Shown here piece after piece: positions 8,201 to 34,807 of a stretch of 64,000 nucleotides of DNA. This stretch comes from Ignavibacteriales bacterium. Lineage in GTDB: Bacteria; Bacteroidota; Ignavibacteria; Ignavibacteriales; Ignavibacteriaceae. The DNA is taken from assembly GCA_003538625.1 (NCBI GenBank), contig DPRR01000014.1:24945-88944 (forward strand), written 5' to 3'. The translations under genes and the position numbers were made by a program. Below the pieces are notes generated by a model that worked only from the letters and a program-made list of their open reading frames with translations, was not told the origin of the DNA and ran no database searches. Positions within the stretch are counted from its first letter, which is position 1. Every line of letters begins with the position of its first letter.

Positions 8201-8515
8201 TTAATGTACGTCCCGCATTGGAAATATTGTATCCAATTTGACCTTAGATAAAATTTCTTTGACCTTGTTAGTCACACCAACCAACTCAAAGTTTGCGTTA
8301 CGATTAGTTGTAGTTGTAAATGCGTGCACAAGCATTCCAATAGCCCAGCTTGTCACATACTCTACATTAGATAGATCGATTACAATTGAATGAATTCCTT
8401 TGTCGAGAGTATTCAAAACATAATCCTGAAACTCAACACCTTCTGTACCTAAAAGTTGTTTCTTGTTGAATTTTATTAAAGTTGAATTTCCTTGATCGCT
8501 AGTGCTAATTTCCAT
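8201..8515 (-). CDS. STAS-domain anti-sigma-factor antagonist (SpoIIAA/RsbV-like)
   Basis: 104 aa. IDLSNVEYVTSWAIGML aligns to the DLSxVxxxDSxGLG motif with Ser retained at the phospho-site. It is the last gene of the co-directional array. Confidence 0.75.
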   Translation of the reverse strand: MEISTSDQGNSTLIKFNKKQLLGTEGVEFQDYVLNTLDKGIHSIVIDLSNVEYVTSWAIGMLVHAFTTTTNRNANFELVGVTNKVKEILSKVKLDTIFPMRDVH

Positions 8516-8689
8516 TTATTTAATCCTTAATAATTATTTTTAGTACTAATGTTATTTTCTGACCAGAAAATACTTCAGTAAAAATGAAAATCAAAGTGCA
8601 ATTATTATTATTCTCTAAACTAGTCCTAGTCTTCTATTTAAGGAATTAACCCGCAAATATTCAAAACTTGAAAAATAAATTTTTCTTTA

Positions 8690-11600
8690 CTATTTAAACT
8701 TTATTACAACAAACGACACATCATCATCAGGCTCTATTCCGTTAATCCATTGAGAAGCCGAATCTTTTAAATGTCCAATTATTTCATTGGGACTTTTTTG
8801 TGCGACAGATCTAAATTCTTCTTTAACTCTTGTATAACCATATTGCTCATTATTTTCATTCTTTAGTTCTGCAAATCCATCACTCATAAGTAAAAGTGTA
8901 TCACCCATTTCATATCTGATCTCTTTGAGTGAATAATTCGTATTCTTCATTCCGCCCAATGGCAAATTATTACTAACAAACTCACCGGCTTTTTGAGATT
9001 TATTTCTAAAATAAATTAGCGATGGCATTCCAGCATTTGTTGCAATTAATTTTTCAGAATTAATTTGAACACCAATCAATGGCATCATCAATCTACCAAG
9101 GTGCATTTCTTTTATTGAGTTATTTGAGTTTTCAAAAAATTGTTTTAATTCAATATTCTTTCGATTCGAAATGAAGAACGATTTCATAATAGATACCATC
9201 ATGCCCGACATCATACCGTGCCCTGTAGCATCACCAGCCAGAATAGTTAGTGTTCCATTATCATCAACATTAAAATCATAATAATCACCTCCAACTTCCG
9301 TTGCAGTTTTCATATAAACAGCAATATCAAGATGTGGTAATTTAGGAAGCTCTTTTGGAAGCATTGATAATTGCAACTGACGTGCGTCTTCAAGCTCTTT
9401 TGTTTTACGTTCATTCTCCGCTTGAATTATTCTATTCTGAGCTTCTGCCTGCTTCAAATCGTTAAAGCGTGTATAAGTGAGATTAAAAACAGCTGCGAAT
9501 CTTTCCAGTAATTGAATTGTCTCCGGCTTTGTTTCGTCAGGGGATGCTACACCGATAAATCCTTTAGTAAAATAAGCAATGTTTTGTATTCTGCGTTTTT
9601 GTGAAAACCCTTCTTTGAATGGAACATTTAGTCTACTAAGATGACTAAAATATTTTTCAAGCTCTTCCCCCTGCAAATCAAGAATAATCGATTTCTTTTG
9701 TTCTTTCCAGCCACTGTACATTTTTCTAAATGAAATATTTTCATTCAGGTTGATAGTAAAACCAGTGCTTACTTTACTTCCATCTTCATCTGTTACCCAG
9801 AATTCGGCAACCTCCGTTTCATCTTTGATGATAGCGATATAAATCCGGTTAGGTTCAATGCCGAGATTTATTAATTGCTTAAATACAACTGCAGAGGTTT
9901 CTGTAAGTTCATCACTTTGCTGCATCGCCAATGTTTTTGCTCTAACTCTTTCTAATGCTGCTTCAATCTGTGCTTCTCTTGCTTGTGCTTCAGCTTTCTG
10001 TAAGTCAAGAAAACGGGTATATGTTTGATTAAAAACCAGCGAAAAACGTTCCAGCACATCAATTTTTTCTACAGATAGAGCCTCAATCGTAGACATCATA
10101 ATAAATCCCTGCGAGAAAAATCCTACACTGTGCACTCTGCGATTCTCCTTTAATACGTCTTCATTTATAAACATTTGCATTTCCTCACGCACATATCTAA
10201 TCCATTCATTTAATTCCAATCCTGAAAGATCTATAACTACTGATCGCTTTTTTGCTTTCCAGTTACCGTAAATTTTTGACCAGGTGGTTGGTTCATCAAT
10301 ACTTGGTTTAAATATGTGAGTGATTTGATTTCCAACCTGGTCTGTAGACCAGAGTTCAATAGATCTGACATCCTCTTTCATGATACCGATAGTTATTCGA
10401 TCCGGGATATATCCTAATTCATTAAGTTGTTGAAAAAGAACTGCTGCTGTTTCAGCCAGCTCCTCACTTTTTTGCATCGCCATTGTTCGAGATCGAACCT
10501 TTTCCAATGCTGCTTCTATTTTCGCTTCCCTTGCCTGAGATTCAGCTTTTTGCAGATCGAGAAAGCGCGTGTATGATTGTTCAAATACAACAGCAAATCG
10601 TCTGAATATATTATTCTCTTCTTCAGTATAGATTATCGATGCATAGTTGCCAATGATTAACATGATTGTTGGCATAAACACAATTGTTCTTGTATAATTA
10701 TTGTTTAAGATGTAGTCTTTTGTTTTTTCGGGTAAATATTTGAATATAGAATTTTCAAACACATGCTGATGCCACTGCCTGCTTTCCTCTATTGATAATG
10801 TATCTGTGTATATACTAAGATTATTATTTTGTACATTTCTTATTCTTTCAAACATAGGATTATTCAGATAAGGGACATGAATTTTATACGGACGAGGTAA
10901 GCCGGTAGCTGATATCCAGAAGTTATAATCATGAGTTTGGTTTCTTATAGCAAAACTTACGTTATCGAAATTAAAATTTAAAAGCTGGAATTGTTTTGCC
11001 AGAATAGTAATTACCTGAAGAAGTTCTTCACTACGTTGCATTGCCATAGTTCTGCTTCTCACTCTTTCCAATGCTGCTTCTATCTGCGCTTCTCTTGCTT
11101 GTGCTTCTGCTTTTTGCAAATCAAGAAAGCGGGTGTAGGTTTGTTGGAATACTTTTCCAAATCTCATAAGCGTGGCATTCTCATCATCTGAATAAGGAAT
11201 ACCCGAAAAATTTTCGATGTACAATCCAACATTTTCTAACAATACCGTTGATCCTGCGAGTCCGGGACAACTAAAATAAAATTCCTTTGCTTGCGCCGGC
11301 AACCCGGGGATATACTCAAAAAGTTTTTGATAAAACCTGTTTTTTTCTTCAAAACTCAAATTGGTGGCAAAGAAATCCTCTCCTTTTTCTTTTGCTTCAT
11401 TAAAACGATTGTAGTACACAGAATCAAAATACGGAATTGTTATCTTGGCGGGGACCCCAAGCGGGTCAGCTACCCAAATATTGTAATCATCTCTTATCTT
11501 ATAATCCATAACAAACCCTGCATGCTCAACAAGTATATTTAAATGAGCAAATTGTTCATAAACAATCTGAATTACGTCCTTGAGTTCTTCGCTTTTTTGC

Positions 11601-13309
11601 ATACCCATAGAACGGCTACGCACTCTTTCCAATGCAAGTTCTATTTGTGCCTCTCTTGCCTGTGCTTCTGCTTTTTTTAGATCGAGAAAACGGGTGTAGG
11701 TTGGTTCAAATACTTTGGCAAACCGTTTTAAAATATCATGTTCCTTTTCCGAAAATGTTCTGTCAGAGTAGCTATGTATACTGATGCCGATATTATTTGC
11801 TATTCCGACAGACAGGCACCAGCCTTCAGCGGCAAGGATCATTTTTTTTCTTTCATCCGGCAAGTCCTTATAATCAGAATGTTCATAGAGATAAGAGAAG
11901 TAGGCGTCTTTTTCTTCTTTCGGATAAATCTTACTGAGAAGATCCTGTTTGCTTTTAACAGCATTAAAAATATCATTCATAACAGGGGTGTCGAAATAAG
12001 GTGTATACAGGCAAACGGCTTTGGTATATCCGGGGGCTGTAAACCAGGAATCAAAACCTGTCAGGTCATCATTCAATATGTTAATATTAATTGCATCAAC
12101 ATCAATTTCCAGGTCTTTCATTTGACCGAATAATGTCATTACTACATCATTCAGTTCTTCACTTTTTTGCATCGCCATTGTTCTTACACGAACTCTTTCA
12201 AGCGCTAATTCAATTTCAGCCTCTCTTGCCTGTGCCACAGCTATTTCAATATCCAGATACCTTTGATATGCCAGTTCGAATACTTTAAGGAATCGCTTAA
12301 ATAAATATATTTCTGCTTCCGTTAGAAGAATGTAAGTTGAAATTCCAAGTGCAACCGGACCCAGGGAGAACCAATAATAATTTAGTGACGAGGCAGTTTC
12401 GAGGTACTCGTCAATAAAAACATTTGTCGTTTTTTGATAGTTAATCCAGTCTTTTACGTCATCGCCATTTATATGTGTGATAAAGGTTTCTCTCTTGCCC
12501 TTCAGCATTTTTGCCGCAAATTCTTTATGCATTTCATGGTTTGTATATGAAGTTTCTGTAATAAAGGTTTTGTCGTGCTTAGCATAATATTCATAATTCA
12601 TATAAGTGCCGCGCTGCTCATAAAAGATAGCTGTTTGCACATTACGAATTTCCTTTACCCCCAATGAATGGAGTTGAAGTGAAATTGTCTTGCACACATC
12701 CAGCATATCATCTGGTTTCCTCATCCCCATCGCGATAGTACGTACTTTTTCTAATGCAGTTTCAATTTCTAGCTCTCTATTTTTAATAAGTAAGTCGGCA
12801 GTTTTCTCTTCAACCGCTTTTTGTAATACAGCATTTTTTTTCTTCCACTCGTCAACATGCCAGGGATCATCACCACCGGAAATATGCTCCGGCTTAGAAC
12901 CATGCCAATGAATAAGTTTCCACGATCCATCTCTAAATTCAAATATAGTTGACATTCTTACCGCTAACTCATTAGACTCACCTTGAAATCGTGTGAGCAA
13001 TACGATTTCATCAACAACCACAGCAGTATTTCCATTGTCAGAGATGCGGCTTATTACGGGCTTCGAAGTAAAACTAAATTCGTCAAAATTTACGGCTTGT
13101 TCCCGTTGATCAATTATAAGGTCTCTAAAATCCTGAATAGACGTAATCTTTTCATCCTGAGCTGTACCATAACCCATTACATTTTCGTCTATGAATTCAG
13201 AAACATTTTCAAGAGAACCTTCACCGAATCCAACTTCAAGTAATCTTTTATATGCTGCTTTCAGAGATTTTTCTTTATCTGCTAAGCTAAAGTTTGTTTT
13301 AGATTTCAT
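8690..13309 (-). CDS. Giant cytoplasmic multi-module PP2C/SpoIIE phosphatase (NTF2-like N-domain, six tandem ~185-aa modules, SpoIIE)
   Basis: 1539 aa with no signal peptide or TM segment. The C-terminus has GGDYYDF, GDATGHGMMSG, SDGFAEL and PDDDVSFVVIKFK. Internal helix motif YTRFLDLQKAEAQAREAQIEAALERVR recurs every 184-190 aa. Confidence 0.85.
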   Translation of the reverse strand: MKSKTNFSLADKEKSLKAAYKRLLEVGFGEGSLENVSEFIDENVMGYGTAQDEKITSIQDFRDLIIDQREQAVNFDEFSFTSKPVISRISDNGNTAVVVDEIVLLTRFQGESNELAVRMSTIFEFRDGSWKLIHWHGSKPEHISGGDDPWHVDEWKKKNAVLQKAVEEKTADLLIKNRELEIETALEKVRTIAMGMRKPDDMLDVCKTISLQLHSLGVKEIRNVQTAIFYEQRGTYMNYEYYAKHDKTFITETSYTNHEMHKEFAAKMLKGKRETFITHINGDDVKDWINYQKTTNVFIDEYLETASSLNYYWFSLGPVALGISTYILLTEAEIYLFKRFLKVFELAYQRYLDIEIAVAQAREAEIELALERVRVRTMAMQKSEELNDVVMTLFGQMKDLEIDVDAININILNDDLTGFDSWFTAPGYTKAVCLYTPYFDTPVMNDIFNAVKSKQDLLSKIYPKEEKDAYFSYLYEHSDYKDLPDERKKMILAAEGWCLSVGIANNIGISIHSYSDRTFSEKEHDILKRFAKVFEPTYTRFLDLKKAEAQAREAQIELALERVRSRSMGMQKSEELKDVIQIVYEQFAHLNILVEHAGFVMDYKIRDDYNIWVADPLGVPAKITIPYFDSVYYNRFNEAKEKGEDFFATNLSFEEKNRFYQKLFEYIPGLPAQAKEFYFSCPGLAGSTVLLENVGLYIENFSGIPYSDDENATLMRFGKVFQQTYTRFLDLQKAEAQAREAQIEAALERVRSRTMAMQRSEELLQVITILAKQFQLLNFNFDNVSFAIRNQTHDYNFWISATGLPRPYKIHVPYLNNPMFERIRNVQNNNLSIYTDTLSIEESRQWHQHVFENSIFKYLPEKTKDYILNNNYTRTIVFMPTIMLIIGNYASIIYTEEENNIFRRFAVVFEQSYTRFLDLQKAESQAREAKIEAALEKVRSRTMAMQKSEELAETAAVLFQQLNELGYIPDRITIGIMKEDVRSIELWSTDQVGNQITHIFKPSIDEPTTWSKIYGNWKAKKRSVVIDLSGLELNEWIRYVREEMQMFINEDVLKENRRVHSVGFFSQGFIMMSTIEALSVEKIDVLERFSLVFNQTYTRFLDLQKAEAQAREAQIEAALERVRAKTLAMQQSDELTETSAVVFKQLINLGIEPNRIYIAIIKDETEVAEFWVTDEDGSKVSTGFTINLNENISFRKMYSGWKEQKKSIILDLQGEELEKYFSHLSRLNVPFKEGFSQKRRIQNIAYFTKGFIGVASPDETKPETIQLLERFAAVFNLTYTRFNDLKQAEAQNRIIQAENERKTKELEDARQLQLSMLPKELPKLPHLDIAVYMKTATEVGGDYYDFNVDDNGTLTILAGDATGHGMMSGMMVSIMKSFFISNRKNIELKQFFENSNNSIKEMHLGRLMMPLIGVQINSEKLIATNAGMPSLIYFRNKSQKAGEFVSNNLPLGGMKNTNYSLKEIRYEMGDTLLLMSDGFAELKNENNEQYGYTRVKEEFRSVAQKSPNEIIGHLKDSASQWINGIEPDDDVSFVVIKFK
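9425..12754 (-). repeat. Intragenic tandem array of six ~185-aa protein modules (about 555-nt period)
   Basis: The LE(K/R)VR anchor falls at aa 186, 370, 560, 747, 935 and 1119, and a seventh degenerate helix at about aa 1285-1300 leads into the PP2C domain. The DNA copies differ mainly at wobble positions. Confidence 0.8.
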
Positions 13310-13312: not shown

Positions 13313-14284
13313 TTATTTTACCTTTATCACAACAAATGTCACATCATCATCTGGTTCTGTTCCGTTAATCCATTGAGATGCTGAGTTCTTAAGGTGTTCA
13401 ACTATCTCATTGGAGTTTCTCTGTGCTACAGATCTGAATTCTTCTTTTATTCTTAGATAACCATATTGTTCATTATTTCGATTCTTTAATTCCGCAAATC
13501 CATCACTCATTAGTAAAAGTGTATCGCCTCTTTCATAGATGATCTTTCTAAGTGAATATACTGTACTTTTCATCGCACCTAATGGCATATTATTAATTAC
13601 AAACTCACCTGCCTTTTGAGATTTTTTCCGGAAATAAATTAAAGATGGCATTCCGGCATTTGTAGCAATAACTTTTTGAGATGTAATTTGAACACCCATA
13701 CACGCCATCATCAATCTGCCTAGCTGCATATCTTTTATAGATTTGTTTGAACTGTCAAAAAAGTTCTTCAATTCAAGAGTATTTCTATCAGCAATAAAAA
13801 ATGATTTCATAATCGAAACCATCATTCCAGACATCATTCCGTGACCAGTAGCATCACCAACAAGAACAGTTAAGGTGCCATCGGGTTTAATATGAAAATC
13901 ATAATAATCACCGCCGACTTCTGTAGCTGTTTTCATATAAACAGCAATATCAAGATGCGGTAGTTTTGGAAGTTCAAGAGGAAGCATTGCCAGTTGTAAT
14001 TGTCTTGCATCTTCAAGTTCTTTGGATTTTCTGTCGTTCTCTGCTTGAATTATTTTTGCCTGTTCCTCAACCGCTTTTCTCTTTTGTTCAAGCTCTTCAA
14101 TTGTTTCCTCGAGTAAAATCGCTGTAGTTTTTTTTACCTTCTCTGTTCTTTCCAGTTTGAATGCAGTTATCTCTAATTCTTTATCTGCATCCTTTACAGC
14201 TTTTATCATACTATCTTTTTGCTCAGCATCTAATTTTTCAGATTGCAGAATAATATCGAGTATATTTTGAAGTTTCTGATTCAT
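13313..14284 (-). CDS. Short coiled-coil PP2C/SpoIIE phosphatase without a sensor domain
   Basis: 323 aa. About 95 aa of coiled coil (ENDRKSKELEDARQLQLAMLP), then a SpoIIE domain highly similar to that of the giant downstream gene. The stop lies 3 nt from the next start. Confidence 0.85.
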   Translation of the reverse strand: MNQKLQNILDIILQSEKLDAEQKDSMIKAVKDADKELEITAFKLERTEKVKKTTAILLEETIEELEQKRKAVEEQAKIIQAENDRKSKELEDARQLQLAMLPLELPKLPHLDIAVYMKTATEVGGDYYDFHIKPDGTLTVLVGDATGHGMMSGMMVSIMKSFFIADRNTLELKNFFDSSNKSIKDMQLGRLMMACMGVQITSQKVIATNAGMPSLIYFRKKSQKAGEFVINNMPLGAMKSTVYSLRKIIYERGDTLLLMSDGFAELKNRNNEQYGYLRIKEEFRSVAQRNSNEIVEHLKNSASQWINGTEPDDDVTFVVIKVK

Positions 14285-14292: not shown

Positions 14293-15456
14293 TTATTTTT
14301 CTTTTAATACCACCAGGCAACAGGTATTATTATGATAATCATATTTACCGGTTTTTGATTTTCCATATTCACCATAGGAAAAAAAGCCTGCCATAGGTGC
14401 ATCCCAGATTTTTTGCACCTTCTCTATCTCCTCCTTTACTATCATACCAAACGCTAAATGCCTGCTCACACATGAAAACATAATAAGTGCATCGGCTTCT
14501 TGTTGTGCTTCATCTTTAATATTTTTACAGTCTGCAACCACTTTTTCAATGGAATCAAAATCAGGCGGCATGGAAAATTTAATTTTTGAACCCTGAGGCA
14601 CTCTTCCGGAACAGATCAGTGAACGGTCTTCCTTATTGGCGAACATGGCTGTGCGTATTACGGGATCTTCATTTTCCCTTTCCAGTTCCAGTGGATAGTA
14701 CCAAGAGCTAAGGAATGTCGTGATGTCCGTCTCCACATCCTCTTTGATATCCACACCCAGGTAATTCATTAACATATCCAATGCTGGTTTATCGTTGATG
14801 GTATACACAATATTACCTTCGCTTTTAGTAACTGTTTTTGTGGTGCCAATAGCTTTCCAGCCACAAGTAGCTATACCTCTAACATCTATTTTATCTTCAT
14901 CAATAATGAGTGCTACAATTGCGCAGTCTTTACTTTTGCCGTTGGTAAAAACAAATGTTGATTCAAGTGCCAAATCATCTCCCGCCTTACCTCCAAATAT
15001 CGTTACTTCCCTTTCTGCCGACGAGGGAGGTTTTCCAAAACTTTGTATGATGCCTTCAACAATTGGCTCACCATCTAAGGACACCCCACTGTTTGCAATA
15101 ATAAACGCTGGGTTGGCAAACGTTTCTTTTCCGGTAATGCCCAGTTTGTTTGCGTCTTCTAAGGCGGTTTCCTGGCTTGTTTCAAGAAATTCTATTTTAA
15201 AATAAGCTGGATGCATGTCGAGCAACATCATGACTATGCTGCCTCCTTCAATTTCGCCATCAATAAATTCCCCGGCAGTTGTAACACCAAATACCTGAAA
15301 GCCTTTTTCGTCAAGTAATTTGGAAATAGTTTCTCTGTCCTGTTTAACAGATAAGAACACAACAGCTAAAGTTGGTTTGAATCCATCAGCCATGCTTTCA
15401 GTTAATGCAGAACTGATTTCTTCTGTAGATTTTCCTTTAATTGTTTTTGCTTTCAT
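14293..15456 (-). CDS. FIST-domain (FIST_N + FIST_C) sensory protein
   Basis: 387 aa. N-terminus MKAKTIKGKS...GFKPTLAVVFLSV and C-terminus GFFSYGEYG...HNNTCCLVVL fit stand-alone FIST proteins. It lies 8 nt upstream of the short phosphatase. Confidence 0.75.
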   Translation of the reverse strand: MKAKTIKGKSTEEISSALTESMADGFKPTLAVVFLSVKQDRETISKLLDEKGFQVFGVTTAGEFIDGEIEGGSIVMMLLDMHPAYFKIEFLETSQETALEDANKLGITGKETFANPAFIIANSGVSLDGEPIVEGIIQSFGKPPSSAEREVTIFGGKAGDDLALESTFVFTNGKSKDCAIVALIIDEDKIDVRGIATCGWKAIGTTKTVTKSEGNIVYTINDKPALDMLMNYLGVDIKEDVETDITTFLSSWYYPLELERENEDPVIRTAMFANKEDRSLICSGRVPQGSKIKFSMPPDFDSIEKVVADCKNIKDEAQQEADALIMFSCVSRHLAFGMIVKEEIEKVQKIWDAPMAGFFSYGEYGKSKTGKYDYHNNTCCLVVLKEK

Positions 15457-17542: not shown

Positions 17543-17657
17543 AAAATATAATTTTTCATTAATAATAAATTTATTCAGCTATCAACTGAGTCTTCATCAA
17601 GTGCGAAATCGATAGATGAAGTGTGACTTTACTAAACTTGCCTGCGGTAAGCAGGTT

Positions 17658-25410: not shown

Positions 25411-25464
25411 TCGAAATGACAATAACAATTTTCACACACCCTAAAGGACGGGGCTATTATTTTC

Positions 25465-28400: not shown

Positions 28401-28821
28401 AGTTTGGGTCTGAATGATTGTTATTGTATCGGGTAAAAGTTTTTGTAGCGGAATTATATTTACTTAATCCGGTTAGTGTACCGCCGATCCAAAGCGTACC
28501 ATCCTTTGCAACAAGCATCGCATTTCCCGCATTATCGTTTAAGGATAAACTATCATCGGGATTTCTATTAAAAATTTCAAAATTGTATCCGTCAAATTTG
28601 TTTAGACCATCTTCAGTGCCAATCCAGATAAATCCATCATGGTCTTGCACAATTGAAATAACCCGATTTTGGGATAAGCCATTACTAGAGGTAATCCGAT
28701 TAAATTTAACTGGTTTTTTCTGAGCGATAGCAATTGAAGTAAACATTAATAATATCAGAAAAAATGCCGAGTATTTAGACGAGAGTTTTAGATTTAAATT
28801 ATTTACCATATTAGTTTCCAT
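25465..28821 (-). CDS. Periplasmic two-propeller/Y_Y_Y sensor fused to TM, coiled coil and PP2C/SpoIIE phosphatase
   Basis: 1118 aa with a signal peptide and canonical regulator-propeller repeats. FKLENYEDDW...YVFRVKGSNNDGLWN, PPWWRTNLAY plus TM, ENQRKTKELEEARQLQLSMLPK, and SpoIIE motifs ending PDDDVTFVVIKVK. Confidence 0.85.
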   Translation of the reverse strand: METNMVNNLNLKLSSKYSAFFLILLMFTSIAIAQKKPVKFNRITSSNGLSQNRVISIVQDHDGFIWIGTEDGLNKFDGYNFEIFNRNPDDSLSLNDNAGNAMLVAKDGTLWIGGTLTGLSKYNSATKTFTRYNNNHSDPNSLAEDIIVSLNEDTNGNLWIATRNKGFDYMKVNEGKFIHMINMLPPDYKIPENKIFFIHQDKQNNLWIGGAGKIHYFKISYSQAGVPILQPIKIENQILKTAATSIKEDNDGNIWIGTPGEGLFRFDYKDKTLKKFEITDGNTLLNSLIIIALESDEIGNLWIGGLPIDDNPDAERETVPGLLRLNIQSKEIEKFLVDPKDQKSLSSNRILSLLVDKTGVLWVGTYLSGLNVYDKSVIKFSLVATDQDETNKIKGPIRGFYIDNNKILWIASQGGGLISYDRSKDKYEFFTHSENEPSSISDDIVRSIYDDGKYMWIGTDQGLNRFDKKTKTFKRFYIDPSNPNLNVNGINYNIIEIDKMPGYLWFGTNGSGLVRFDKEKETFKKYTYDPEDAASLSSRANHVRTVWYSKSRPDELWAGTTNGINILNLKTETFRYYNYNPKDSTSLSHPNVLNFYEDKRGYIWIATYGGGLNRFDPKTEKFLRLTQENSGLPNNGVYGSLPDEEGNLWISTNNGITKFNPNTFQFRNYSVDDGLQSEEFNGGAYYKAPDGEMFFGGIKGFNYFYPSEVIDNKFIPNIVLTDLKIFNESVKVGGDSPLKVQISKTDEIVLPYWQNDISFEYVALHYSNPSKNKYAFKLENYEDDWRYVGNVRIATYTNLDPGEYVFRVKGSNNDGLWNEEGKSIRLIIKPPWWRTNLAYASYFVILLVGGFSFDRYQRSRIKSTEQRRAQLALLRAENQRKTKELEEARQLQLSMLPKNLPQLPQFDIAVYMKTATEVGGDYYDFHVGMDGTLTVVIGDATGHGMRAGTMVTTTKSLFSSHASNPDILFTFQEITRCIKTMNMHMLSMCLTILKINGNKMQISAAGMPPALLYRDKTKLVEEIILKGMPLGAVQDFPYELRETEINPGDTILLMSDGLPELFNKEKEMFGYERVMDIYKNSASKNPEEIIDELKSEGNSWSDNKEPDDDVTFVVIKVK

Positions 28822-29029: not shown

Positions 29030-30637
29030 TTAAAGCTTTTTAAGAATCAGTGCTGTAATATCATCGCTTTGTGGAGCTGTGCCAGTATGACCTTTTACAT
29101 CATTAACTAAGGCATTTATAAATTCTTGAGAAGAAATATGTGCGTTGTTCTGAAAAAAGCTTATCATTCTTTCGTCAGAAAATTCTTCTTCCTGTTCATT
29201 CATTGCTTCAGGGATACCGTCAGTATACAAAAAGAGCTTATCGCCGGAATTAATAATTGATTTTTGTCCTGCAAAAGGAATCCCAAAATCAAACATGCCC
29301 AAACCAACACCGCCGGCATCAAGTTTTTCAAGTGTCCCATCTTTTCGTAATAAAAAGATCGGGTTGTGACCTGCATTCACTATATCCAGTTCACCTGTAT
29401 GTGAATCAAGAACAGCAATAAAAAACGTTATATATTTATCGGAAGGAGATGACTTATAAATTAATTTATTTAATCTATCAGACATTTCAGTTAAGGGGAT
29501 ATCAAATTGCAAATAAGAGTAAAGCGCAGCATCTAAAGTACTGACAAGAAGTGCAGCGCCAATTCCTTTTCCGGCTACATCAGCAATAATAAAGGCAAAT
29601 TTGCCTCTGCCAAGATCGATACAATTATAATAATCACCTCCAACTTCTTTGGACGGAATATTTATTCCCGAAAATTCGTAGCCGGCTATTTTGGGAAGTT
29701 CAGTGGGTAGAATTCTTTGTTGAATTGAAGCGGCAACAATTAATTCCTGCTCCATTTTTTCTTTTTCAATTGCCTGATCATTCAAAAACTGATTTTCTAT
29801 TGAAACCTGAACCTGTCTGGCAACTGCATCAAGAAGCATTTTATCAAGTTCATTAAATGCAGTTGTATTGTGCCGTGTTTCCTTTTCAGATAGAACAAAA
29901 TTGTACAAACGGTCATTGTGCTCAAATGAAGATTCCATTTTAAATCTACTGGTAAGAATTTTATCAGGGTCAATTCCAGTGGGAAAAACGATATATCTTT
30001 TATGATTGTTCTGAGATTTTTTTACTATTTCAATTAATGCTGAGGATGCATTTGTCATTGAAGTGATACGTGCAAGTGCAATATCGTACAAATCACTTTT
30101 TTTATCATAACGTGAAATCTCGATACCGGCATCGATTAGATTATTAAGATGCAGCACTCTTTCATTTAACTCAAATATCAGTGCCTTTTCTTTTTTCTGA
30201 TTTAAAAAAGATTTGTAAGCACTATCAAAAACCTGAAGAAGTATTTGTAAAGTTATTTTATCAAAATCCGTGAAATTTGATTTATCAAACTTAGGGCCGA
30301 TTAAAATTCCCAAATATGTTTTATCAGCAAGAGGAAGTGTAATGGATACTTCAATCCTTGGATCATCAAAATATTTTAATGATGGATTTTCAGAATCATG
30401 AAGAAAAGATGAATATGATGGATCAGGGATTTTCTTTAATGAAATGTTACTCCAATTAGAATCATTAGCTAATTTATGGAAAGAATAAATTTCCGTGATG
30501 ATAAAATTTCCTCTTATTATGTGAAGGAAGTTTTTTACCATTTCCAGAAAACTGAATGACTTTGAAAGAAGTTCAAATCCTTCCTGAAAAGACTCAACCT
30601 GCAAAGCAAGTTTTTCTACAAGATTATTATTTACCAC
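29030..30637 (-). CDS. Cytoplasmic GAF-like sensor fused to a PP2C/SpoIIE phosphatase (RsbU/RsbP-like)
   Basis: 535 aa with no TM segment. About 300 aa of N-terminal sensory region, then ELIVAASIQQRILP, VGGDYYNC, ADVAGKG, YTDGIPEA and SDDITALILKKL. Confidence 0.8.
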   Translation of the reverse strand: MVNNNLVEKLALQVESFQEGFELLSKSFSFLEMVKNFLHIIRGNFIITEIYSFHKLANDSNWSNISLKKIPDPSYSSFLHDSENPSLKYFDDPRIEVSITLPLADKTYLGILIGPKFDKSNFTDFDKITLQILLQVFDSAYKSFLNQKKEKALIFELNERVLHLNNLIDAGIEISRYDKKSDLYDIALARITSMTNASSALIEIVKKSQNNHKRYIVFPTGIDPDKILTSRFKMESSFEHNDRLYNFVLSEKETRHNTTAFNELDKMLLDAVARQVQVSIENQFLNDQAIEKEKMEQELIVAASIQQRILPTELPKIAGYEFSGINIPSKEVGGDYYNCIDLGRGKFAFIIADVAGKGIGAALLVSTLDAALYSYLQFDIPLTEMSDRLNKLIYKSSPSDKYITFFIAVLDSHTGELDIVNAGHNPIFLLRKDGTLEKLDAGGVGLGMFDFGIPFAGQKSIINSGDKLFLYTDGIPEAMNEQEEEFSDERMISFFQNNAHISSQEFINALVNDVKGHTGTAPQSDDITALILKKL

Positions 30638-30706
30638 TTTAATTTTATCTTTATAATGAATGGATAATTACTTTGCTGCTCAAACAAAAGTAATACGAAA
30701 ATAATT

Positions 30707-30738
30707 TGTGCTGCCACAGAATAGTCCGCGGCAGCACA
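30707..30738 (-). terminator. Stem-loop between the STAS gene and the GAF-phosphatase gene (possible attenuator or processing site)
   Basis: TGTGCTGCC-14 nt-GGCAGCACA is a 9-bp GC-rich stem. Only a weak T-rich tail follows it on the minus strand. Confidence 0.35.
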
Positions 30739-30757
30739 ATGAAACTTAAAAAGAAAA

Positions 30758-31093
30758 TTAGCTGTTTAAAGCCGCATCAACAGTATCAGCTTTTTCCGCA
30801 AACTGAAATAAACCCATTATAGAAAAAGTTTTTTCTATCGTGGGATCAAGGTTTGTAAATACCAATTTGCCGTTTCCCTGATTAAGTATTTCAATAACTT
30901 CAATCAAATGAGAAATGCCGATTGAATTTACAACTTTCGAATTTTCAAGATTAAGTATAAGTTTATTAACATCTGAATGTTTAGTAAACTCCTGAACAAT
31001 TTTTTCACCACCGATATTATTTATATATCCTTCGGTTTTTATTACAAGAGTTTTATCGTGTAATTCTGAATTCAAACTAAAATCTGTGCTCAT
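30758..31093 (-). CDS. STAS-domain anti-sigma-factor antagonist (RsbV/SpoIIAA-like)
   Basis: 111 aa. LNLENSKVVNSIGISHLIEV carries the conserved phospho-Ser position. It begins 13 nt after the kinase gene. Confidence 0.85.
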   Translation of the reverse strand: MSTDFSLNSELHDKTLVIKTEGYINNIGGEKIVQEFTKHSDVNKLILNLENSKVVNSIGISHLIEVIEILNQGNGKLVFTNLDPTIEKTFSIMGLFQFAEKADTVDAALNS

Positions 31094-31106: not shown

Positions 31107-31523
31107 TTAGATTAATTTTTTAATAATTGTAATTCGTGTTCCATTAGGACCTGATTCAATAATCAGATCATCTGACATTGACTTCATAAGTTTTAAACCC
31201 CAACCTCTTTTATGAGAACTATGTATTTTATCTGTGATTTGAGGATTTTCTACTTTTTCAGGTTCAAACCCGGGTCCAAAATCTGTAACAAGTATAATTA
31301 GCTTTTCAGTCCCCATATCAAATTCAACATCAACATGAGGGTTATTTTCTCCGGAGTGTTCAAGTGCATTAATAATAGCTTCCGTAACTATCAATTTTGC
31401 TTCGCTAATCTTTTCATGCGGAATACCCAGATGCTTACCCATAATTTGTAAGCTTTCAATAGCAACCAATTCTACATCCGGAATATTTGGAAGCTTTATT
31501 TCCAGTTTAACATTTTCCTTCAT
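31107..31523 (-). CDS. RsbW/SpoIIAB-type serine kinase / anti-sigma factor (HATPase_c)
   Basis: 138 aa. N-box [11 protein letters not shown]1 DFGPGF and G2 RGWGLKLM. The size is typical of partner-switching kinases. Confidence 0.85.
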
Positions 31524-31636: not shown

Positions 31637-34600
31637 TTACTTTACTCTGATAACAACAAAACTTATATCATCATCCTGAATTCTGCCGTTCATCCAATCA
31701 TCACCGGCAACAACAAGATGATTAATTATTTCTTCGGGATGATTAGATGCTACACTTTGGAAATTACTTTTAACACGCGAATAATCAAACATCTCCTCGT
31801 CTAAATTCATTTGTTCAGGCAGTCCATCTGTTAATAATAAAATTATATCACCACTGTTAATCTCTTTTTCAATCACTTTATAAGGAAAGTTCCTCATCGC
31901 ACCCAGCGGCATACCCTGAATTACTAATTCTTCAACATCATTTGAACTGCTGTTATAGAAAAAGATTGGAGGCATTCCTGCACTGGTAATTTTCAATTTA
32001 CTGCCTTCAATCTTTAGATAACTAAAAGACATTAAAATTCTTCCTAATTCAATCTCTTTTATCATTCTGCTGCAATGATTCATAAATTCTGACATTCCGA
32101 GTTTGGATGAGTCTGAAGTAAAAAATCCTTTCATTAAAGTTACCATCGTTCCAGCCTGAAGACCGTGACCTGTTGCATCACCAAAGGCAACATACAATCC
32201 GTTGTTTTCTATTATTCTAAAATCGTAGTAGTCTCCACCTACTTCAGTTGCAGTTCTCATAAATGCAGCTATTTCAAGATTAGGTAGTACGGGCAATTTT
32301 TTAGGAAGCATCGATAGCTGAAGTTGTCTTGCTTCTTCAAGCTCTTTTGTTTTTCTCTCATTCTCAATTTCAAGTGCTCGCTTTTCAGCTTCTGTTGCCT
32401 TAATACGTAAAGCTGATTCCCGGATTTGAGCTTTTTGTTCCCGTCTGTTAATTTCTACTTGTCTTATAAAATATAAAAGACCAAAGAATGAAATAAAGTA
32501 AATTGCATATGCAAGATTAGTTTTCCACCATGGCGGAGAAACGTGGACAAGCAATGATGTACCTTCCTCATTCCAAACACCATCATTATTTGAACCAATT
32601 ACTCTTAATGTATAATCACCAGGAGAAAGGTTTGTGAATGTGACTCTATTATTATTTCCTAACTGAATCCAGTTTGCGTTAAAGCCTTCAAGTTTGTACC
32701 GGTACTGATTATTGAAATTGTTATAGTAACTTAACGCAGAAAACTCTAGTGTAACAATATTATCCTTATAGGTAATTGATATTTCTTTCATCTCAGAAAT
32801 ACCTTTTTCAATTATAGGTTTACCTTCCTGATCATCCGTATTATATCTTATGTAGTTTGTAATAACAATCGGAGGCACATAAGTGTTCCCGGTAATCCGA
32901 TCCGGATTAAATACATTAAATCCGTTAACACCTCCGAATAACAGATTACCAGTTTTACTGTCTTTTGCAAATGCGTTTTGATTAAATTCATTATTCTGTA
33001 ATCCGTCTGAGGAATAATAATTTGTAAAAGTTTCGCTGGCAGGATTAAACTTAGATAAACCATTATTTGTACTTAACCAGAGATTTCCATTGTTGTCTTC
33101 AAGAATCCCATAAATAAAATTATTGCAAAGTCCATCTTTTTCACTGTATGTTTTAAATTTATTTTCATCTGAGTAAAAACGGCATAATCCTTTTGTTGTA
33201 CCCAACCACATATTACCTTTAGAATCTTTAAACACTCTTATAATATTATCATCACCGATGCTATTTGGATCTTTTGGATTGTTAATGAAATGCCTGAATG
33301 TTTTTTTAGATTTATCAAATATATTTACACCGCCGCCAAATGTTCCAACCCAAATATTTCCGGAATTATCCAATGCTAAAGACCATGTTCTGTTTGAGCT
33401 TAATGAAGTGCTGTCTTTTCCGTCGTATTTATAAGTGTTTATACGTCCTGAATTGCGTTCAAGCATATTAAGTCCGCCTTCATAAGTTCCTATCCAGATA
33501 TTTCCGTCTGCATCCTCAATGATGGCATAAATTCGATTATCCGAAATTGAGTTCTGATCAGATGGATTATGAACATAGGATTTAAAGATTCCTGTTTCCG
33601 GATTAAAGGAATTCAAACCGCTGCTAAAACTGCCAATCCATAATGTACCGGATCTGTCTTCAAATAGCGCTTGAATTGAGTTATCGATCAAACTATTTGG
33701 ATTAGATGGGTTGTGTGAGTAGTTATAGAAATTTTTTGTTTTATAATCAAACTTATCTAAGCCGCCTTTTCTGGTACCGATCCAATAATTACCTTTTCTA
33801 TCAACCAGCATAGAATAAACGTTATTATCCTTAAGACTATTTTTTCTTTCCGGAATATTGAAATAATGTTCAAACACCTGGGAAGATGGATCAAAATAAT
33901 TTACACCGCCTGTATTTGTGCCGATCCAGATTAAGCCGCTTCTATCTTCATAAATTGAAAAAATAAAATTATCATCTAAACTTTTTGGATCGGATGGATC
34001 GTTTTTAAAACTAATAAATGTATTTGAATTAGGATCAAATTTATTTAATCCTCCTTTTACCGTTCCAACCCACAAATTACCTTTTAAATCTTCAAACAAA
34101 GGCCAGACCCAATTATCGCTCAAACTATTCGGGTTACCTGCAATATTTTTAAAATGCTGAAACTTTCCTGTTTTTTCATCAAGTTTATCCAGACCATTAA
34201 AAGTGGCAACCCATAATGAACCGTTTTTATCCCTTAGTACAGAATAAACTTTATTATCGCTTAATGATGAATTATCATTTGGATTATGCATGTAAACTTT
34301 TTTCTCGCCGGTTTTTTTGTTTTCCATAGTTAAACCGACTTCCTTCCCTAAACCACCTCGCCAGGTTATATCTTTTCCATCAAAATAAATGGCTTTTACA
34401 GTACTCATTTTAAAACTAGACAAATCAAGTTTGCCGGGTTCAAGAATTTTAAAGGATTCATCTAAGGGATTGTATTTATTTAGCTTGCCTGACTGTGTTT
34501 CTATATATAATCCACCGGCTTTGTCTTCATAGATTGAAAAGATAAAATTATCAGAAAGACTGGTGCTGTCGTTCGATATATTTTTAAATACTTTAAAGTT

Positions 34601-34807
34601 ATAGCCATCGTATCTGTTTAATCCATCCTGCGTTCCAAACCACATAAATCCATCTTTATCCTGGAAGATGCAGGTGACTGCACTTTGAGAAAGACCATTT
34701 TCTACAGTAAGATGATTAAAAGAAACATGATTTTGAGAAAACATTTCTGAAAAGAGTAATAGAATAGAAGTAAGACAAAACAGAATCTCCCTGAACATAA
34801 AAAGCAT
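31637..34807 (-). CDS. Periplasmic two-propeller/Y_Y_Y sensor fused to TM, coiled coil and PP2C/SpoIIE phosphatase
   Basis: 1056 aa with a signal peptide and many GLSxNxVxxIxxDxxGxxWIGTxxGGLNxFD repeats. YKLEGFNANW...YTLRVIGSNNDGVWN, PPWWKTNLAY plus TM, ENERKTKELEEARQLQLSMLPK, GDATGHGLQAG, and DDDISFVVIRVK. Confidence 0.85.
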   Translation of the reverse strand: MLFMFREILFCLTSILLLFSEMFSQNHVSFNHLTVENGLSQSAVTCIFQDKDGFMWFGTQDGLNRYDGYNFKVFKNISNDSTSLSDNFIFSIYEDKAGGLYIETQSGKLNKYNPLDESFKILEPGKLDLSSFKMSTVKAIYFDGKDITWRGGLGKEVGLTMENKKTGEKKVYMHNPNDNSSLSDNKVYSVLRDKNGSLWVATFNGLDKLDEKTGKFQHFKNIAGNPNSLSDNWVWPLFEDLKGNLWVGTVKGGLNKFDPNSNTFISFKNDPSDPKSLDDNFIFSIYEDRSGLIWIGTNTGGVNYFDPSSQVFEHYFNIPERKNSLKDNNVYSMLVDRKGNYWIGTRKGGLDKFDYKTKNFYNYSHNPSNPNSLIDNSIQALFEDRSGTLWIGSFSSGLNSFNPETGIFKSYVHNPSDQNSISDNRIYAIIEDADGNIWIGTYEGGLNMLERNSGRINTYKYDGKDSTSLSSNRTWSLALDNSGNIWVGTFGGGVNIFDKSKKTFRHFINNPKDPNSIGDDNIIRVFKDSKGNMWLGTTKGLCRFYSDENKFKTYSEKDGLCNNFIYGILEDNNGNLWLSTNNGLSKFNPASETFTNYYSSDGLQNNEFNQNAFAKDSKTGNLLFGGVNGFNVFNPDRITGNTYVPPIVITNYIRYNTDDQEGKPIIEKGISEMKEISITYKDNIVTLEFSALSYYNNFNNQYRYKLEGFNANWIQLGNNNRVTFTNLSPGDYTLRVIGSNNDGVWNEEGTSLLVHVSPPWWKTNLAYAIYFISFFGLLYFIRQVEINRREQKAQIRESALRIKATEAEKRALEIENERKTKELEEARQLQLSMLPKKLPVLPNLEIAAFMRTATEVGGDYYDFRIIENNGLYVAFGDATGHGLQAGTMVTLMKGFFTSDSSKLGMSEFMNHCSRMIKEIELGRILMSFSYLKIEGSKLKITSAGMPPIFFYNSSSNDVEELVIQGMPLGAMRNFPYKVIEKEINSGDIILLLTDGLPEQMNLDEEMFDYSRVKSNFQSVASNHPEEIINHLVVAGDDWMNGRIQDDDISFVVIRVK

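Follow-up and report, generated by a model that had tools for sequence, protein, structure and literature searches.

A conserved Ignavibacteria gene cluster as a candidate many-input partner-switching hub with its output encoded elsewhere

The RsbU/RsbP-RsbV-RsbW-SigB and SpoIIE-SpoIIAA-SpoIIAB-SigF systems of Bacillus subtilis are built from the same three protein types as the gene cluster described here: a SpoIIE-family PPM phosphatase carrying an N-terminal sensor and a helical linker, a single-domain STAS protein with a phospho-serine, and a small HATPase_c_2 kinase. RsbU-type phosphatases combine a coiled-coil linker with an exchangeable sensor (PMC12143880). In Bacillus both RsbU and RsbP act on the one STAS protein RsbV, so the convergence of several phosphatases proposed in a first-pass annotation of this DNA follows an established logic. 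Like the cluster, the Rsb system of Chlamydia trachomatis (RsbU, RsbW, RsbV1, RsbV2) pairs a single kinase with two STAS proteins, includes a phosphatase whose sensor domain is periplasmic, and has no dedicated alternative sigma factor encoded alongside. Its genes are scattered and it has a single sensor phosphatase, whereas here the genes lie together and the phosphatases number seven. The proposed Chlamydia target is the primary sigma factor, encoded elsewhere (PMC4552016, PMC11619594).

Partner switches without a co-encoded sigma factor are in fact well established, and the lack of one, stressed in the first-pass annotation, is not unusual. Besides Chlamydia (PMC4552016), the same PP2C/STAS/kinase logic is seen in Vibrio SypE/SypA, Bordetella BtrUVW, Rhodobacter RbaVWY and Nostoc HmpUVW (reviewed in PMC8256260) and in Pseudomonas HsbR/HsbA (PMC6482189) and SiaABCD (PMC9239204), where the STAS protein or the kinase has a different kind of target. 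These sigma-independent switches have one phosphatase input each, often REC-linked or bifunctional, and none has a tandem sensor-phosphatase array. With the stressosome, the cluster shares only the idea of one partner switch taking its input from several paralogous sensors. There, RsbT, a kinase acting upstream of a single phosphatase, is kept sequestered on a scaffold of RsbR paralogs and RsbS; here, integration would occur at the phosphatase layer.

Ignavibacteria are a group of sediment bacteria, and the window analyzed here is a 64,000-nucleotide stretch of DNA from one of them, an Ignavibacteriales bacterium. Its minus strand carries, between 8201 and 34807, seven SpoIIE/PP2C phosphatases (SpoIIE E-values 5e-27 to 4e-43), two STAS proteins, one RsbW/SpoIIAB-like kinase (KIN), two FIST proteins and one DUF6090 protein by Pfam (Table 1). 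A search of all 119 window ORFs of 70 aa or longer with family HMMs returned exactly seven PP2C, one kinase and two STAS proteins, bearing out the first-pass gene counts. The 7:1 phosphatase-to-kinase ratio derived from them holds for the cluster and is not a genome figure. The minus-strand orientation was also correct, but the co-directional run is longer than the 34807-8201 first described, spanning 767-40158. Position 34807 is still a reasonable cluster boundary because of the hairpin and T-run just upstream of it. Intergenic gaps of 110-210 bp within the cluster contain hairpins, and the cluster is therefore probably several transcription units rather than a single operon. The hairpin after STAS2 may be a terminator, an attenuator or an RNA-stability element; one relative (L006) has its ortholog, and other relatives do not all have one. 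In comparison with Bacillus, the cluster has seven phosphatases rather than two (at least nine in a relative), a second STAS protein, different sensors (periplasmic propeller/Y_Y_Y, tandem GAF, and SnoaL with repeats), no RsbQ-type partner, no stressosome and no sigma gene in the locus. It is the RsbU/RsbP layer scaled up.

Table 1. Features of the cluster and its surroundings (window coordinates)
Feature	Coordinates	Strand	Description and Pfam E-values
STAS1	8201-8515	-	104-aa single-domain STAS, last cluster gene; STAS 1.7e-12
PP2C_1539	8690-13309	-	cytoplasmic giant; SnoaL_3 2.4e-11, SpoIIE 2.9e-25
PP2C_323	13313-14284	-	class A; about 90-aa helical N-terminus, no sensor domain; SpoIIE 5e-27
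FIST_387	14293-15456	-	stand-alone FIST sensor, 8 bp upstream of PP2C_323; FIST 5.1e-30, FIST_C 1.9e-23
DUF6090 protein	15555-16355	-	one N-terminal TM (residues 24-42); DUF6090 6.6e-16
FIST_379	16403-17542	-	stand-alone cytoplasmic FIST sensor; FIST 4.1e-25, FIST_C 9.6e-21
PP2C_1216	17694-21344	-	periplasmic propeller/Y_Y_Y, TM, class A PP2C; SpoIIE 4.2e-32, Y_Y_Y 5.3e-12, Reg_prop 4e-10
PP2C_1256	21506-25276	-	periplasmic propeller/Y_Y_Y, TM, class A PP2C; Reg_prop 2.5e-28, Y_Y_Y 9.3e-16, SpoIIE 1.1e-30
PP2C_1118	25465-28821	-	periplasmic propeller/Y_Y_Y, TM, class A PP2C; Reg_prop 3.1e-48, Y_Y_Y 7.2e-18, SpoIIE 3e-35
PP2C_535	29030-30637	-	class B, 535 aa; SpoIIE 4.3e-43
Hairpin	30706-30739	-	15-bp stem directly after STAS2; separates KIN-STAS2 from the phosphatases 3' of them
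STAS2	30758-31093	-	111-aa single-domain STAS, 13 bp downstream of KIN; STAS 1.9e-10
KIN	31107-31523	-	138-aa RsbW/SpoIIAB-like serine kinase, sole one in the window; HATPase_c_2 2.2e-20
PP2C_1056	31637-34807	-	first cluster gene; Reg_prop 4.9e-63, Y_Y_Y 1.5e-19, SpoIIE 3e-30
Terminator-like hairpin	34917-34887	-	12-bp stem, then T-run; upstream cluster boundary
Linked upstream block	34926-40158	-	hyp165 and T9SS-tailed protein; travels with PP2C_1056
T9SS-tailed protein	34926-39596	-	1556-aa beta-helix protein; Laminin_G_3, Beta_helix, Por_Secre_tail
hyp165	39661-40158	-	small secreted protein (signal peptide prediction)
Hybrid two-component system	40865-45013	+	canonical, same sensor type; HisKA, HATPase, REC, AraC-type DNA-binding domain

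The closest solved relatives of KIN are RsbW (6M36, 2e-8) and SpoIIAB, and that of STAS2 is SpoIIAA. KIN retains an N-box, a DFGPGF box and a G2 box (KRGWGLKLM). As the first-pass annotation had stated, both STAS proteins keep a serine at the predicted phospho-site: Ser57 of STAS2 aligns with SpoIIAA Ser58, within an NSIGIS motif conserved to 95% or more across 79 sequences, and Ser56 of STAS1 lines up with the serine that is the phospho-site in TM1081 and TM1442. At E <= 1e-5 KIN has 1127 homologs, the best 120 of them at 74-100% identity; STAS1 is found far less widely, with 93 clusters at the same threshold, the few source-named ones being from Ignavibacteria. Median identity is similar for KIN (74%) and STAS2 (72%), which marks KIN as a strongly constrained kinase but does not separate a sigma target from a STAS output.

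We favor, with somewhat more confidence than doubt, a reading of the cluster as a conserved, Ignavibacteria-specific, many-input partner-switching hub whose output is encoded elsewhere. Its core would be KIN, the substrate STAS2 and the tandem-GAF phosphatase PP2C_535, with a variable sensor-phosphatase array around it. By homology to RsbW/RsbV/RsbU and SpoIIAB/SpoIIAA/SpoIIE, we infer that KIN would phosphorylate Ser57 of STAS2 and possibly Ser56 of STAS1; phospho-STAS would be unable to bind KIN, which would remain on its target. Each phosphatase would be activated by its own signal through the helical linker and would dephosphorylate phospho-STAS, which would then capture KIN and free the target. 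With several phosphatases converging on a single kinase and one or two STAS proteins, the inputs would be summed at the node or combined there as in an OR gate. A sigma factor held by KIN is the most likely candidate for the target.

The nature of that output is where a second explanation enters. The inputs could be the same, with STAS2 and/or STAS1 as the output, binding a non-sigma effector directly when unphosphorylated; candidates would be FlgM, a diguanylate cyclase or part of the secretion or motility machinery. The role of KIN would then be limited to resetting, and the switch would work without a sigma factor. Pfam detected no sigma domain in any window ORF or in the 10 kb past either window end, and no sigma-70-family gene was present near the cluster in 85 related loci. 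Pfam and the family HMMs likewise found no RsbR-type protein (N-terminal sensor plus STAS), RsbS scaffold or RsbT-like second kinase among the window ORFs. The first-pass annotation was thus right that these genes are missing, while its comparison to a stressosome is a loose one. KIN, STAS1 and STAS2 are distant relatives for which an anti-sigma role cannot be assumed: none comes near the NCBIfam equivalog cut-offs (RsbW, SpoIIAB, SpoIIAA, RsbV), and all fall under even that of the anti-anti-sigma superfamily model. A STAS output has precedents in SypA, RbaV and HmpV (PMC8256260), HsbA (PMC6482189) and SiaC acting on SiaD (PMC9239204), and STAS1, lacking a kinase of its own, would suit such a role. 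However, the solved structures nearest to KIN belong to true anti-sigma factors, SpoIIAB and RsbW in complex with SigB, and no candidate effector gene is conserved beside either STAS gene in the related loci. We consider a STAS output unlikely.

On the input side of the proposed hub, alignment of the seven catalytic domains confirmed the earlier statement that the metal-binding motifs are intact: EVGGDYY(D/N), GDATGHG or ADVAGKG, (S/T)DG(F/L/I)(A/P)E, and DDD(V/I) or SDDI, with D67, D85, G88, G90, D202, G203, D254 and D255 invariant. Six enzymes form class A, 46-80% identical in the catalytic domain, while PP2C_535 (class B) is 25-30% identical to these. The sensors of the class A paralogs are only 26-37% identical, and this combination of similar catalytic domains with divergent sensors is consistent with enzymes that share a substrate but receive different signals. 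PP2C_1056 consists of a signal/TM segment, a periplasmic double beta-propeller (Reg_prop) with Y_Y_Y, a second TM (at residue 758, with a PPWWKT motif), a coiled-coil linker and a class A PP2C domain. Its sensor matches the periplasmic domain of the hybrid two-component sensor in PDB 4A2L (3.6e-121). That of PP2C_1216 belongs to an orthogroup conserved out to Melioribacteraceae. The Bacteroides hybrid systems (PDB 4A2L/4A2M, which we take to be BT4663) have the same double propeller, Y_Y_Y and TM, followed by a HisKA-HATPase-REC-AraC output in place of the coiled-coil linker and PP2C domain found here, so the signal would go to the phospho-STAS node and not directly to DNA. The sensor of the hybrid system within the window shares 36-38% identity with three of the propeller-PP2C sensors and 27% with the PP2C_1216 sensor. 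Since these sensors are of the Bacteroides type, PP2C_1056, PP2C_1118, PP2C_1256 and PP2C_1216 probably receive glycan-like ligands in the periplasm.

PP2C_535 is cytoplasmic, with tandem GAF-like domains, a long helical linker and the PP2C domain; an AlphaFold2 model of residues 1-285 (pLDDT 85.7) matched the PDE5A/PDE2A GAF-A/B pair and phytochrome GAF-PHY in Foldseek (E about 1e-7), and the protein probably senses a cytoplasmic small molecule. PP2C_1539 carries SnoaL_3 and, by repeat analysis, six tandem modules of about 185 aa linked by a near-identical helix before its class A domain; the SnoaL-like domain and the modules would form its input. In the catalytic domain it shares 80% identity with the sensor-less PP2C_323, which is probably controlled in trans by the adjoining FIST_387. 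A free-standing FIST sensor is thought to control the adjoining signaling enzyme in the NosP-kinase precedent, where FIST and FIST_C likewise occur in a protein encoded beside its partner; the NosP neighbor is a histidine kinase, whereas that of FIST_387 is a PP2C. The match of FIST_387 to NosP is weak (2e-18; 66.6 bits, far below the 450-bit cut-off). The trio of FIST, 323-aa PP2C and giant PP2C occurs in two further loci, and DUF6090 is a recurrent accessory of the arrays, with runs of three to four copies in four loci.

Comparative genomics removes the possibility, allowed for in the first-pass annotation, that the juxtaposition is accidental; the cluster is conserved as a unit. KIN and STAS2 are adjacent in 77 of 78 related Ignavibacteria loci, the tandem-GAF phosphatase comes next in 62 of 72, and a PP2C_1056 ortholog lies directly upstream of the kinase and co-directional with it in 25 of 64. 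The block of hyp165 and the T9SS-tailed protein adjoins KIN even where inverted (five loci). All loci with at least 9 kb of downstream flank (61/61) have one to four co-directional PP2C genes downstream. In eight loci the PP2C array ends with STAS1, which in four of them is preceded by a PP2C_1539 ortholog of 977-1740 aa, and a STAS1-type last gene recurs 17-28 kb from the kinase. The unit from PP2C_1056 to STAS1 measures 17.3 kb with five PP2C genes in CAZMYA010000003 (L033 and L088) and 27.7 kb with at least nine in JADJMD010000013, and is reduced to 1056-KIN-STAS2-535-STAS1 in L029. A near-identical strain (L002) lacks PP2C_1118, and some relatives add REC, a 6xGAF histidine kinase and a REC-PP2C, as expected for swappable inputs. 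The idea of many inputs to one node fits this picture: KIN and the phospho-site motif of STAS2 are nearly invariant and the PP2C catalytic domains are conserved, whereas the sensors diverge.

In another reading the STAS proteins are not substrates of the phosphatases, which would be tandem-duplicated sensor PP2Cs with other substrates, parked by a small KIN-STAS-PP2C triad. The hairpin-bearing gaps suggest independent transcription, copy number differs between strains, and SpoIIE-like phosphatase genes elsewhere in bacteria are often unlinked to a kinase gene (PMC2887360). Nevertheless, every sufficiently flanked locus shows the association with KIN-STAS2, which persists between lineages diverged at the family level and through rearrangements; eight independent contigs have STAS1 at the far end of the array; and all seven enzymes belong to the SpoIIE/RsbU subfamily with an RsbU-like linker, making a parked array very improbable.

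Two STAS proteins and two PP2C classes also leave room, against a single node, for two insulated circuits with one shared kinase and two outputs, class B serving STAS2 and some or all of class A, especially the 1539/323/1216 subgroup by STAS1, serving STAS1. The distance between the phosphatase classes is matched by that between the STAS proteins (about 25% identity), PP2C specificity is set by variable docking loops (PMC11418112), and a class A phosphatase, usually of the 1539 type, nearly always directly precedes STAS1. Some MAGs have two KIN-STAS2 loci, one with GAF-PP2C and the other with class A only. Yet in split genomes the class A arrays accompany a STAS2-type protein and not STAS1, and they also occur in loci with no STAS1 gene within the 10 kb fetched; L029 has STAS1 directly after the class B enzyme, and STAS1 is much less widespread than KIN. 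One lineage has only class A phosphatases after its KIN-STAS2 pair, suggesting that class A enzymes work with a pair of this type. Insulated circuits are, on these grounds, quite unlikely.

In the favored reading, a convergent hub, every part is of a known type, and many signals are apparently merged into one switch.

The source genome is that of an Ignavibacteriales bacterium from a sediment metagenome. From 767 to 40158 every long ORF is on the minus strand, the few plus-strand ORFs of this stretch being nested within the long ones. Family HMMs applied to each ORF of the window with a length of 70 aa or more returned exactly the counts given by the first-pass annotation, namely seven SpoIIE/PP2C phosphatases (named here by their length in residues), two STAS proteins and one RsbW/SpoIIAB-like kinase; STAS2 is the STAS protein encoded beside the kinase, and STAS1 is the one that ends the cluster. 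All seven phosphatases matched SpoIIE (PF07228) at 90-148 bits against a cut-off of 25 (E = 5e-27 to 4e-43; Pfam), and their structural matches are SiaA, RssB, Rv1364c and SpoIIE. They are predicted to be active, since the metal-binding motifs listed in the first pass were all present in an alignment of the seven domains, in which D67, D85, D202, D254 and D255 are invariant.

Features of the phosphatase cluster and its surroundings in the window
Feature	Position	Strand	Remarks
tRNA-Ser (GCT)	6218-6309	-	only Rfam or ARAGORN match in the window
STAS1, STAS	8201-8515	-	104 aa; Pfam
PP2C_1539, SpoIIE/PP2C	8690-13309	-	1539 aa; Pfam
PP2C_323, SpoIIE/PP2C	13313-14284	-	323 aa; Pfam
FIST_387, FIST + FIST_C	14293-15456	-	Pfam
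DUF6090 protein	15555-16355	-	Pfam
FIST_379, FIST + FIST_C	16403-17542	-	Pfam
PP2C_1216, SpoIIE/PP2C	17694-21344	-	1216 aa; Pfam
PP2C_1256, SpoIIE/PP2C	21506-25276	-	1256 aa; Pfam
PP2C_1118, SpoIIE/PP2C	25465-28821	-	1118 aa; Pfam
PP2C_535, SpoIIE/PP2C	29030-30637	-	535 aa; Pfam
15-bp-stem hairpin	30739-30706	-	3' of STAS2
STAS2, STAS	30758-31093	-	111 aa; Pfam
Kinase, HATPase_c_2	31107-31523	-	138 aa; Pfam
PP2C_1056, SpoIIE/PP2C	31637-34807	-	1056 aa; Pfam
Strong terminator-like hairpin	34917-34887	-	separates the cluster from the upstream gene of the T9SS-tailed protein

The kinase is a single-domain HATPase_c_2 protein of the Bergerat fold with N, G1 and G2 boxes (73.4 bits against a cut-off of 27.4; Pfam), and its best PDB matches are RsbW (6M36) and SpoIIAB. 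Its homologs number 1127, the best 120 having 74-100% identity, and the motif KRGWGLKLM is conserved. It shares with the RsbW/SpoIIAB kinases the small HATPase_c_2 fold and the adjoining STAS gene, here 13 bp downstream, but falls below the curated equivalog cut-offs (NF003144, 51.7 versus 145; TIGR01925, 51.8 versus 135; TIGR01924, 43.3 versus 155; NCBIfam) and has no co-encoded sigma factor within the loci searched. Both STAS proteins (47.4 and 40.9 bits against a cut-off of 22.6; Pfam) have the STAS fold within about 100-120 aa. They share size, fold and serine site with RsbV and SpoIIAA, but score below the curated models: STAS2 at 39.5 and STAS1 at 48.2 against 53.45 for TIGR00377, and at 38.4 and 22.1 against 114.75 for TIGR02886 (NCBIfam). 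The serine that the first pass had placed at the phospho-site of both proteins was borne out, the predicted phospho-acceptor lying in each case at the start of helix 2. Ser57 of STAS2 aligns with SpoIIAA Ser58 and is kept in at least 95% of 79 sequences. In STAS1, Ser56 is aligned to the corresponding serine of TM1081 and TM1442, two antagonists from Thermotoga, and is unchanged in all five STAS1 sequences aligned.

The window had been reported to contain no sigma factor, and this holds: no sigma-70-family domain was found by Pfam in the ORFs of its 64 kb, nor, when a sigma factor just outside was looked for, within 10 kb past either end. A phmmer search of the ORFs of 70 aa or more from the window and from 85 related loci (about 1.5 Mb), using SigB, SigF, FliA and RpoE as single-sequence queries, which are weaker for divergent ECF sigmas, gave nothing under E = 0.02; the positive control was sound, as the queries found each other. 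The borderline ORFs from this search were rejected as sigma factors, since Pfam identified them as a response regulator of the LuxR type and an HTH protein of the XRE type. When about 400 unassigned neighbour ORFs were clustered, no additional gene family was present in more than 14 loci. Because neither a sigma factor nor any other recurrent neighbour family was found near the cluster, the output is probably encoded elsewhere. The genome of Ignavibacterium album carries 16 sigma factor genes (PMC3362086), so candidate targets exist, and a sigma factor held by the kinase is a possible, if still tentative, identity for this output. Alternatively, the STAS proteins could themselves be the output with no sigma factor involved, by analogy with SypA, HsbA and SiaC (PMC8256260, PMC6482189, PMC9239204). 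That the kinase, STAS1 and STAS2 score too low for the RsbW, SpoIIAB, SpoIIAA and anti-anti-sigma superfamily models of NCBIfam would suit such an arrangement, which we consider unlikely.

The phosphatases fall into two classes. The catalytic domains of the six mutually similar class A enzymes are 46-80% identical to one another, versus 25-30% identity between these and class B, which consists of PP2C_535. A linker, ENERKTKELEEARQLQLSMLP, is near-identical across the six class A enzymes in the alignment. In PP2C_1056, PP2C_1118, PP2C_1256 and PP2C_1216, an N-terminal signal or transmembrane (TM) segment is followed by Reg_prop propellers with Y_Y_Y, a PPWW(R/K)T motif with a TM segment, the linker and the PP2C domain; these four proteins are periplasmic sensors. 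The sensor of PP2C_1056 matched the periplasmic domain of a hybrid two-component protein (PDB 4A2L) at E = 3.6e-121, and three of the propeller sensors are 36-38% identical to the canonical hybrid two-component system encoded divergently at 40865-45013, versus 35-37% among themselves. That of PP2C_1216 is more remote from the other propeller sensors and from the hybrid system (26-29%). The four phosphatases thus share propellers, Y_Y_Y and TM segment with the Bacteroides hybrid two-component proteins, but the HisKA, HATPase, REC and AraC-type HTH output of the latter is replaced by the linker and SpoIIE domain, and is present only in the neighbour at 40865-45013.

The remaining phosphatases carry inputs of other kinds. 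A fold search with the full-length model of PP2C_535 gave PP2C matches only, with no GAF match, so the N-terminal 285 residues were modelled apart (AlphaFold2, pLDDT 85.7). They form two GAF-like domains, for which Foldseek matched the GAF-A/B pair of PDE5A and PDE2A and the GAF-PHY pair of phytochromes (E about 1e-7), and in the model a helix of 47 residues (263-309) lies between the GAF-like pair and the PP2C domain. PP2C_323 has the linker with no sensor domain and starts 8 bp past the gene for FIST_387, a FIST protein that weakly resembles the stand-alone sensor NosP; no solved FIST structure was found in the structure search. PP2C_1539 is cytoplasmic; its SnoaL_3 domain precedes six tandem modules of about 185 aa joined by an almost invariant helix. 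The helix that ends each module reads (F)xxVFxQTYTRFLDLQKAEAQAREAQIEAALERVR, and the sole Pfam match of the modules is a weak one to DUF7951 (0.0022).

When one genome was scanned for each GTDB species, 393 loci with a relative of the kinase were found, of which the best 80 carry Ignavibacteria-type or generic MAG labels; ORFs were called in related loci and matched to the window proteins. In 77 of 78 loci STAS2 comes next after the kinase gene. The gene after STAS2 encodes a GAF-PP2C in 62 of 72 loci, and in 9 others its product is a PP2C of class A or propeller type. One to four co-directional PP2C genes lie downstream in each of the 61 loci for which 9 kb or more of sequence was available on that side, and a co-directional PP2C gene lies immediately upstream of the kinase in 25 of 64. 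Homologs of STAS1 form 93 clusters, the few with a source name being from Ignavibacteria, and in eight loci STAS1 is the final gene of the phosphatase array, with unrelated genes beyond. On contig CAZMYA010000003 a distance of 17.3 kb, with five PP2C genes, separates the kinase from STAS1; on JADJMD010000013 the distance is 27.7 kb, with at least nine. The minimal form, in locus L029, comprises PP2C_1056, the kinase, STAS2, PP2C_535 and STAS1. A near-identical strain with an identical kinase (GCA_014874525.1) is without the PP2C_1118 gene, and its counterpart of the 1216-aa gene is broken into ORFs of 1015 and 190 aa. Extra content in the relatives consists of FIST genes, DUF6090 arrays, or a REC protein with a six-GAF histidine kinase and a REC-PP2C; the trio of FIST, 323-aa PP2C and giant PP2C recurs in two loci. 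What is conserved is the cluster as a whole, while its content between the two ends varies, and an accidental juxtaposition, which the first-pass annotation had proposed to check by comparing neighbourhoods, is excluded. Relatives of the system are also present in assemblies of Melioribacter roseus.

Among the array members seen in relatives are a 123-aa receiver, a six-GAF histidine kinase of 1150-1340 aa and a REC-PP2C (L022, 11476-17048; L045, 10583-14474; L050, 18775-20297), which are a two-component input to the same cluster. Three or four paralogs of the single-TM DUF6090 protein lie inside the cluster in four loci, versus one in the window.

These features are probably those of a many-input partner switch, the phosphotransfer steps, ligands and targets being proposed by homology to RsbW/RsbV/RsbU and SpoIIAB/SpoIIAA/SpoIIE. 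The kinase would phosphorylate Ser57 of STAS2 and perhaps Ser56 of STAS1, and phosphorylated STAS would be unable to bind the kinase, which would remain on its target. A signal reaching any sensor phosphatase would activate it via the helical linker, a mechanism described together with exchangeable sensor modules (PMC12143880); the active phosphatase would dephosphorylate STAS, which would capture the kinase and free the target. The inputs may be periplasmic glycan-like ligands for the four propeller sensors, a cytoplasmic small molecule for the tandem GAF, FIST-bound ligands acting in trans for PP2C_323, and cues of unspecified kind for PP2C_1539. The FIST route is suggested by the recurrence of the trio and the weak likeness to NosP.

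Convergence on one node is indicated by the conservation of the catalytic domains while the sensors diverge, and by the near invariance of the kinase and of the STAS2 phospho-site motif. It is further indicated by MAGs with two loci of kinase and STAS2 (four pairs of loci), in which class A arrays accompany a pair of this type. There, the first locus has the GAF-PP2C and a divergently transcribed block of a secreted 165-aa protein, a T9SS-tailed protein and PP2C_1056, and the second has class A phosphatases only, with kinases that form a single monophyletic clade. These split genomes, together with the minimal locus L029, speak against two insulated circuits that share one kinase, in which class B would go with STAS2 and class A with STAS1. 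Such circuits, which we regard as improbable, would be in keeping with the divergence of the two classes and with the position of STAS1. The predicted docking loops of the two classes (flap, alpha2/beta4 and alpha3/4), taken without a complex model, yielded no assignment of STAS partners. Phosphatases acting on unrelated substrates are also unlikely, because the linkage of phosphatase, kinase and STAS2 is universal. The proposal of the first pass that the cluster is an analogue of the stressosome fails because RsbR, RsbS and RsbT are absent, the window encoding only two single-domain STAS proteins and one kinase. Overall, a many-input partner switch whose output is a sigma factor held by the kinase is the reading we lean towards, by a modest degree of confidence.

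The cluster is probably several transcription units rather than a single operon, because hairpins lie at its boundary, after STAS2, and in other intergenic gaps of 110-210 bp, where they are GC-rich. The hairpin downstream of STAS2 was considered as a universal element and rejected, as it occurs in close relatives only. REP-like GC-rich hairpins such as TTTCGACCCCGATTCATCGGGGGAGAAAT lie in the gaps 25277-25464, 21345-21505 and 17543-17693 between phosphatase paralogs, and similar sequences were seen in the STAS2-downstream spacers of other genomes (three loci). A small inverted repeat, ACTTTTGTTTGAGCAGCAAAGT (30670-30691, minus strand), precedes the start codon of PP2C_535 by about 30 nt and has no T-tract following. 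It has been conserved in several relatives (including L006, L029 and L033) and may be an operator or RNA element. A sigma-70 promoter scan gave 89 and 83 sites versus 79 and 75 in shuffled sequence and was therefore uninformative, and the Bacteroidetes-type -7 motif TAnnTTTG showed no enrichment upstream of cluster genes. An Rfam scan of the whole window returned no riboswitch or known regulatory RNA.

Several flanking genes were also surveyed. The block of the secreted 165-aa protein, the 1556-aa T9SS-tailed beta-helix/Laminin_G protein (34926-40158, minus strand, for these two) and PP2C_1056 moves together, remaining beside the kinase even when inverted (five loci), and PP2C_1056 may sense something tied to the secreted protein. 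On the plus strand, 40865-50892 holds the hybrid two-component system, then eight small genes (SnoaL, DUF4440, MoaF-like, RidA) and an MFS transporter; a SnoaL_3 domain is also what opens PP2C_1539. The hybrid sensor lies beside the phosphatase cluster in five related loci, usually with some of the small genes, and differs in placement and orientation. About 8 kb past the right end of the window, the source-contig flank (L091, 18054-19970) encodes a 638-aa TPR protein with a Guanylate_cyc nucleotide cyclase domain; that it supplies a cyclic-nucleotide ligand to the tandem-GAF phosphatase is pure speculation. The genes at 52716-57256 (minus strand), for two T2SSE-family ATPases and a T2SSF platform protein, are type IV pilus or type II secretion-like and have no apparent connection to the cluster.

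All components of the cluster are of known families, the seven phosphatases sharing the SpoIIE domain, metal aspartates and helical linker of RsbU and SpoIIE, and both sigma-less partner switches and multi-phosphatase input (RsbU with RsbP) are already established. Genome-wide expansions of SpoIIE-like phosphatases are known from Streptomyces and Sorangium (PMC2887360). What is distinctive is a set of features of which no description was found in the literature searched: a tandem array, conserved class-wide, that runs from the kinase to a second STAS, the turnover of sensor phosphatases within it in the manner of cassettes, fusion of hybrid-two-component-type periplasmic sensors to PP2C, and the pairing of FIST with a sensor-less PP2C. 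A bolder synthesis, rather doubtful when all its parts are taken jointly, is that Ignavibacteria rewired the glycan sensors of polysaccharide-utilisation hybrid two-component systems to a single phospho-STAS node instead of gene-specific AraC outputs. The result would be an evolvable cassette array of one to at least nine sensor phosphatases (periplasmic propeller, GAF, FIST-partnered, SnoaL-repeat and REC-linked), capped by the kinase at one end and by the second STAS at the other. It would integrate nutrient-polymer and cytoplasmic signals globally and throughout the class, with a target regulator elsewhere (a primary or FliA-type sigma factor, or a motile/sessile switch) and STAS1 as a second, separately addressable output.

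Melioribacter roseus is cultivable, which makes these questions open to experiment, and the seven phosphatases and two STAS proteins are a defined set for the study of PP2C substrate specificity. The placement of a Bacteroides hybrid periplasmic sensor on a PP2C output fits the view of exchangeable sensor modules joined to PP2C, kinase and cyclase outputs via coiled-coil linkers (PMC12143880). The cluster, conserved across the class yet with input modules that are gained, lost and duplicated even between strains, would be a compact natural case of a partner switch whose signals are integrated at the phosphatase layer.
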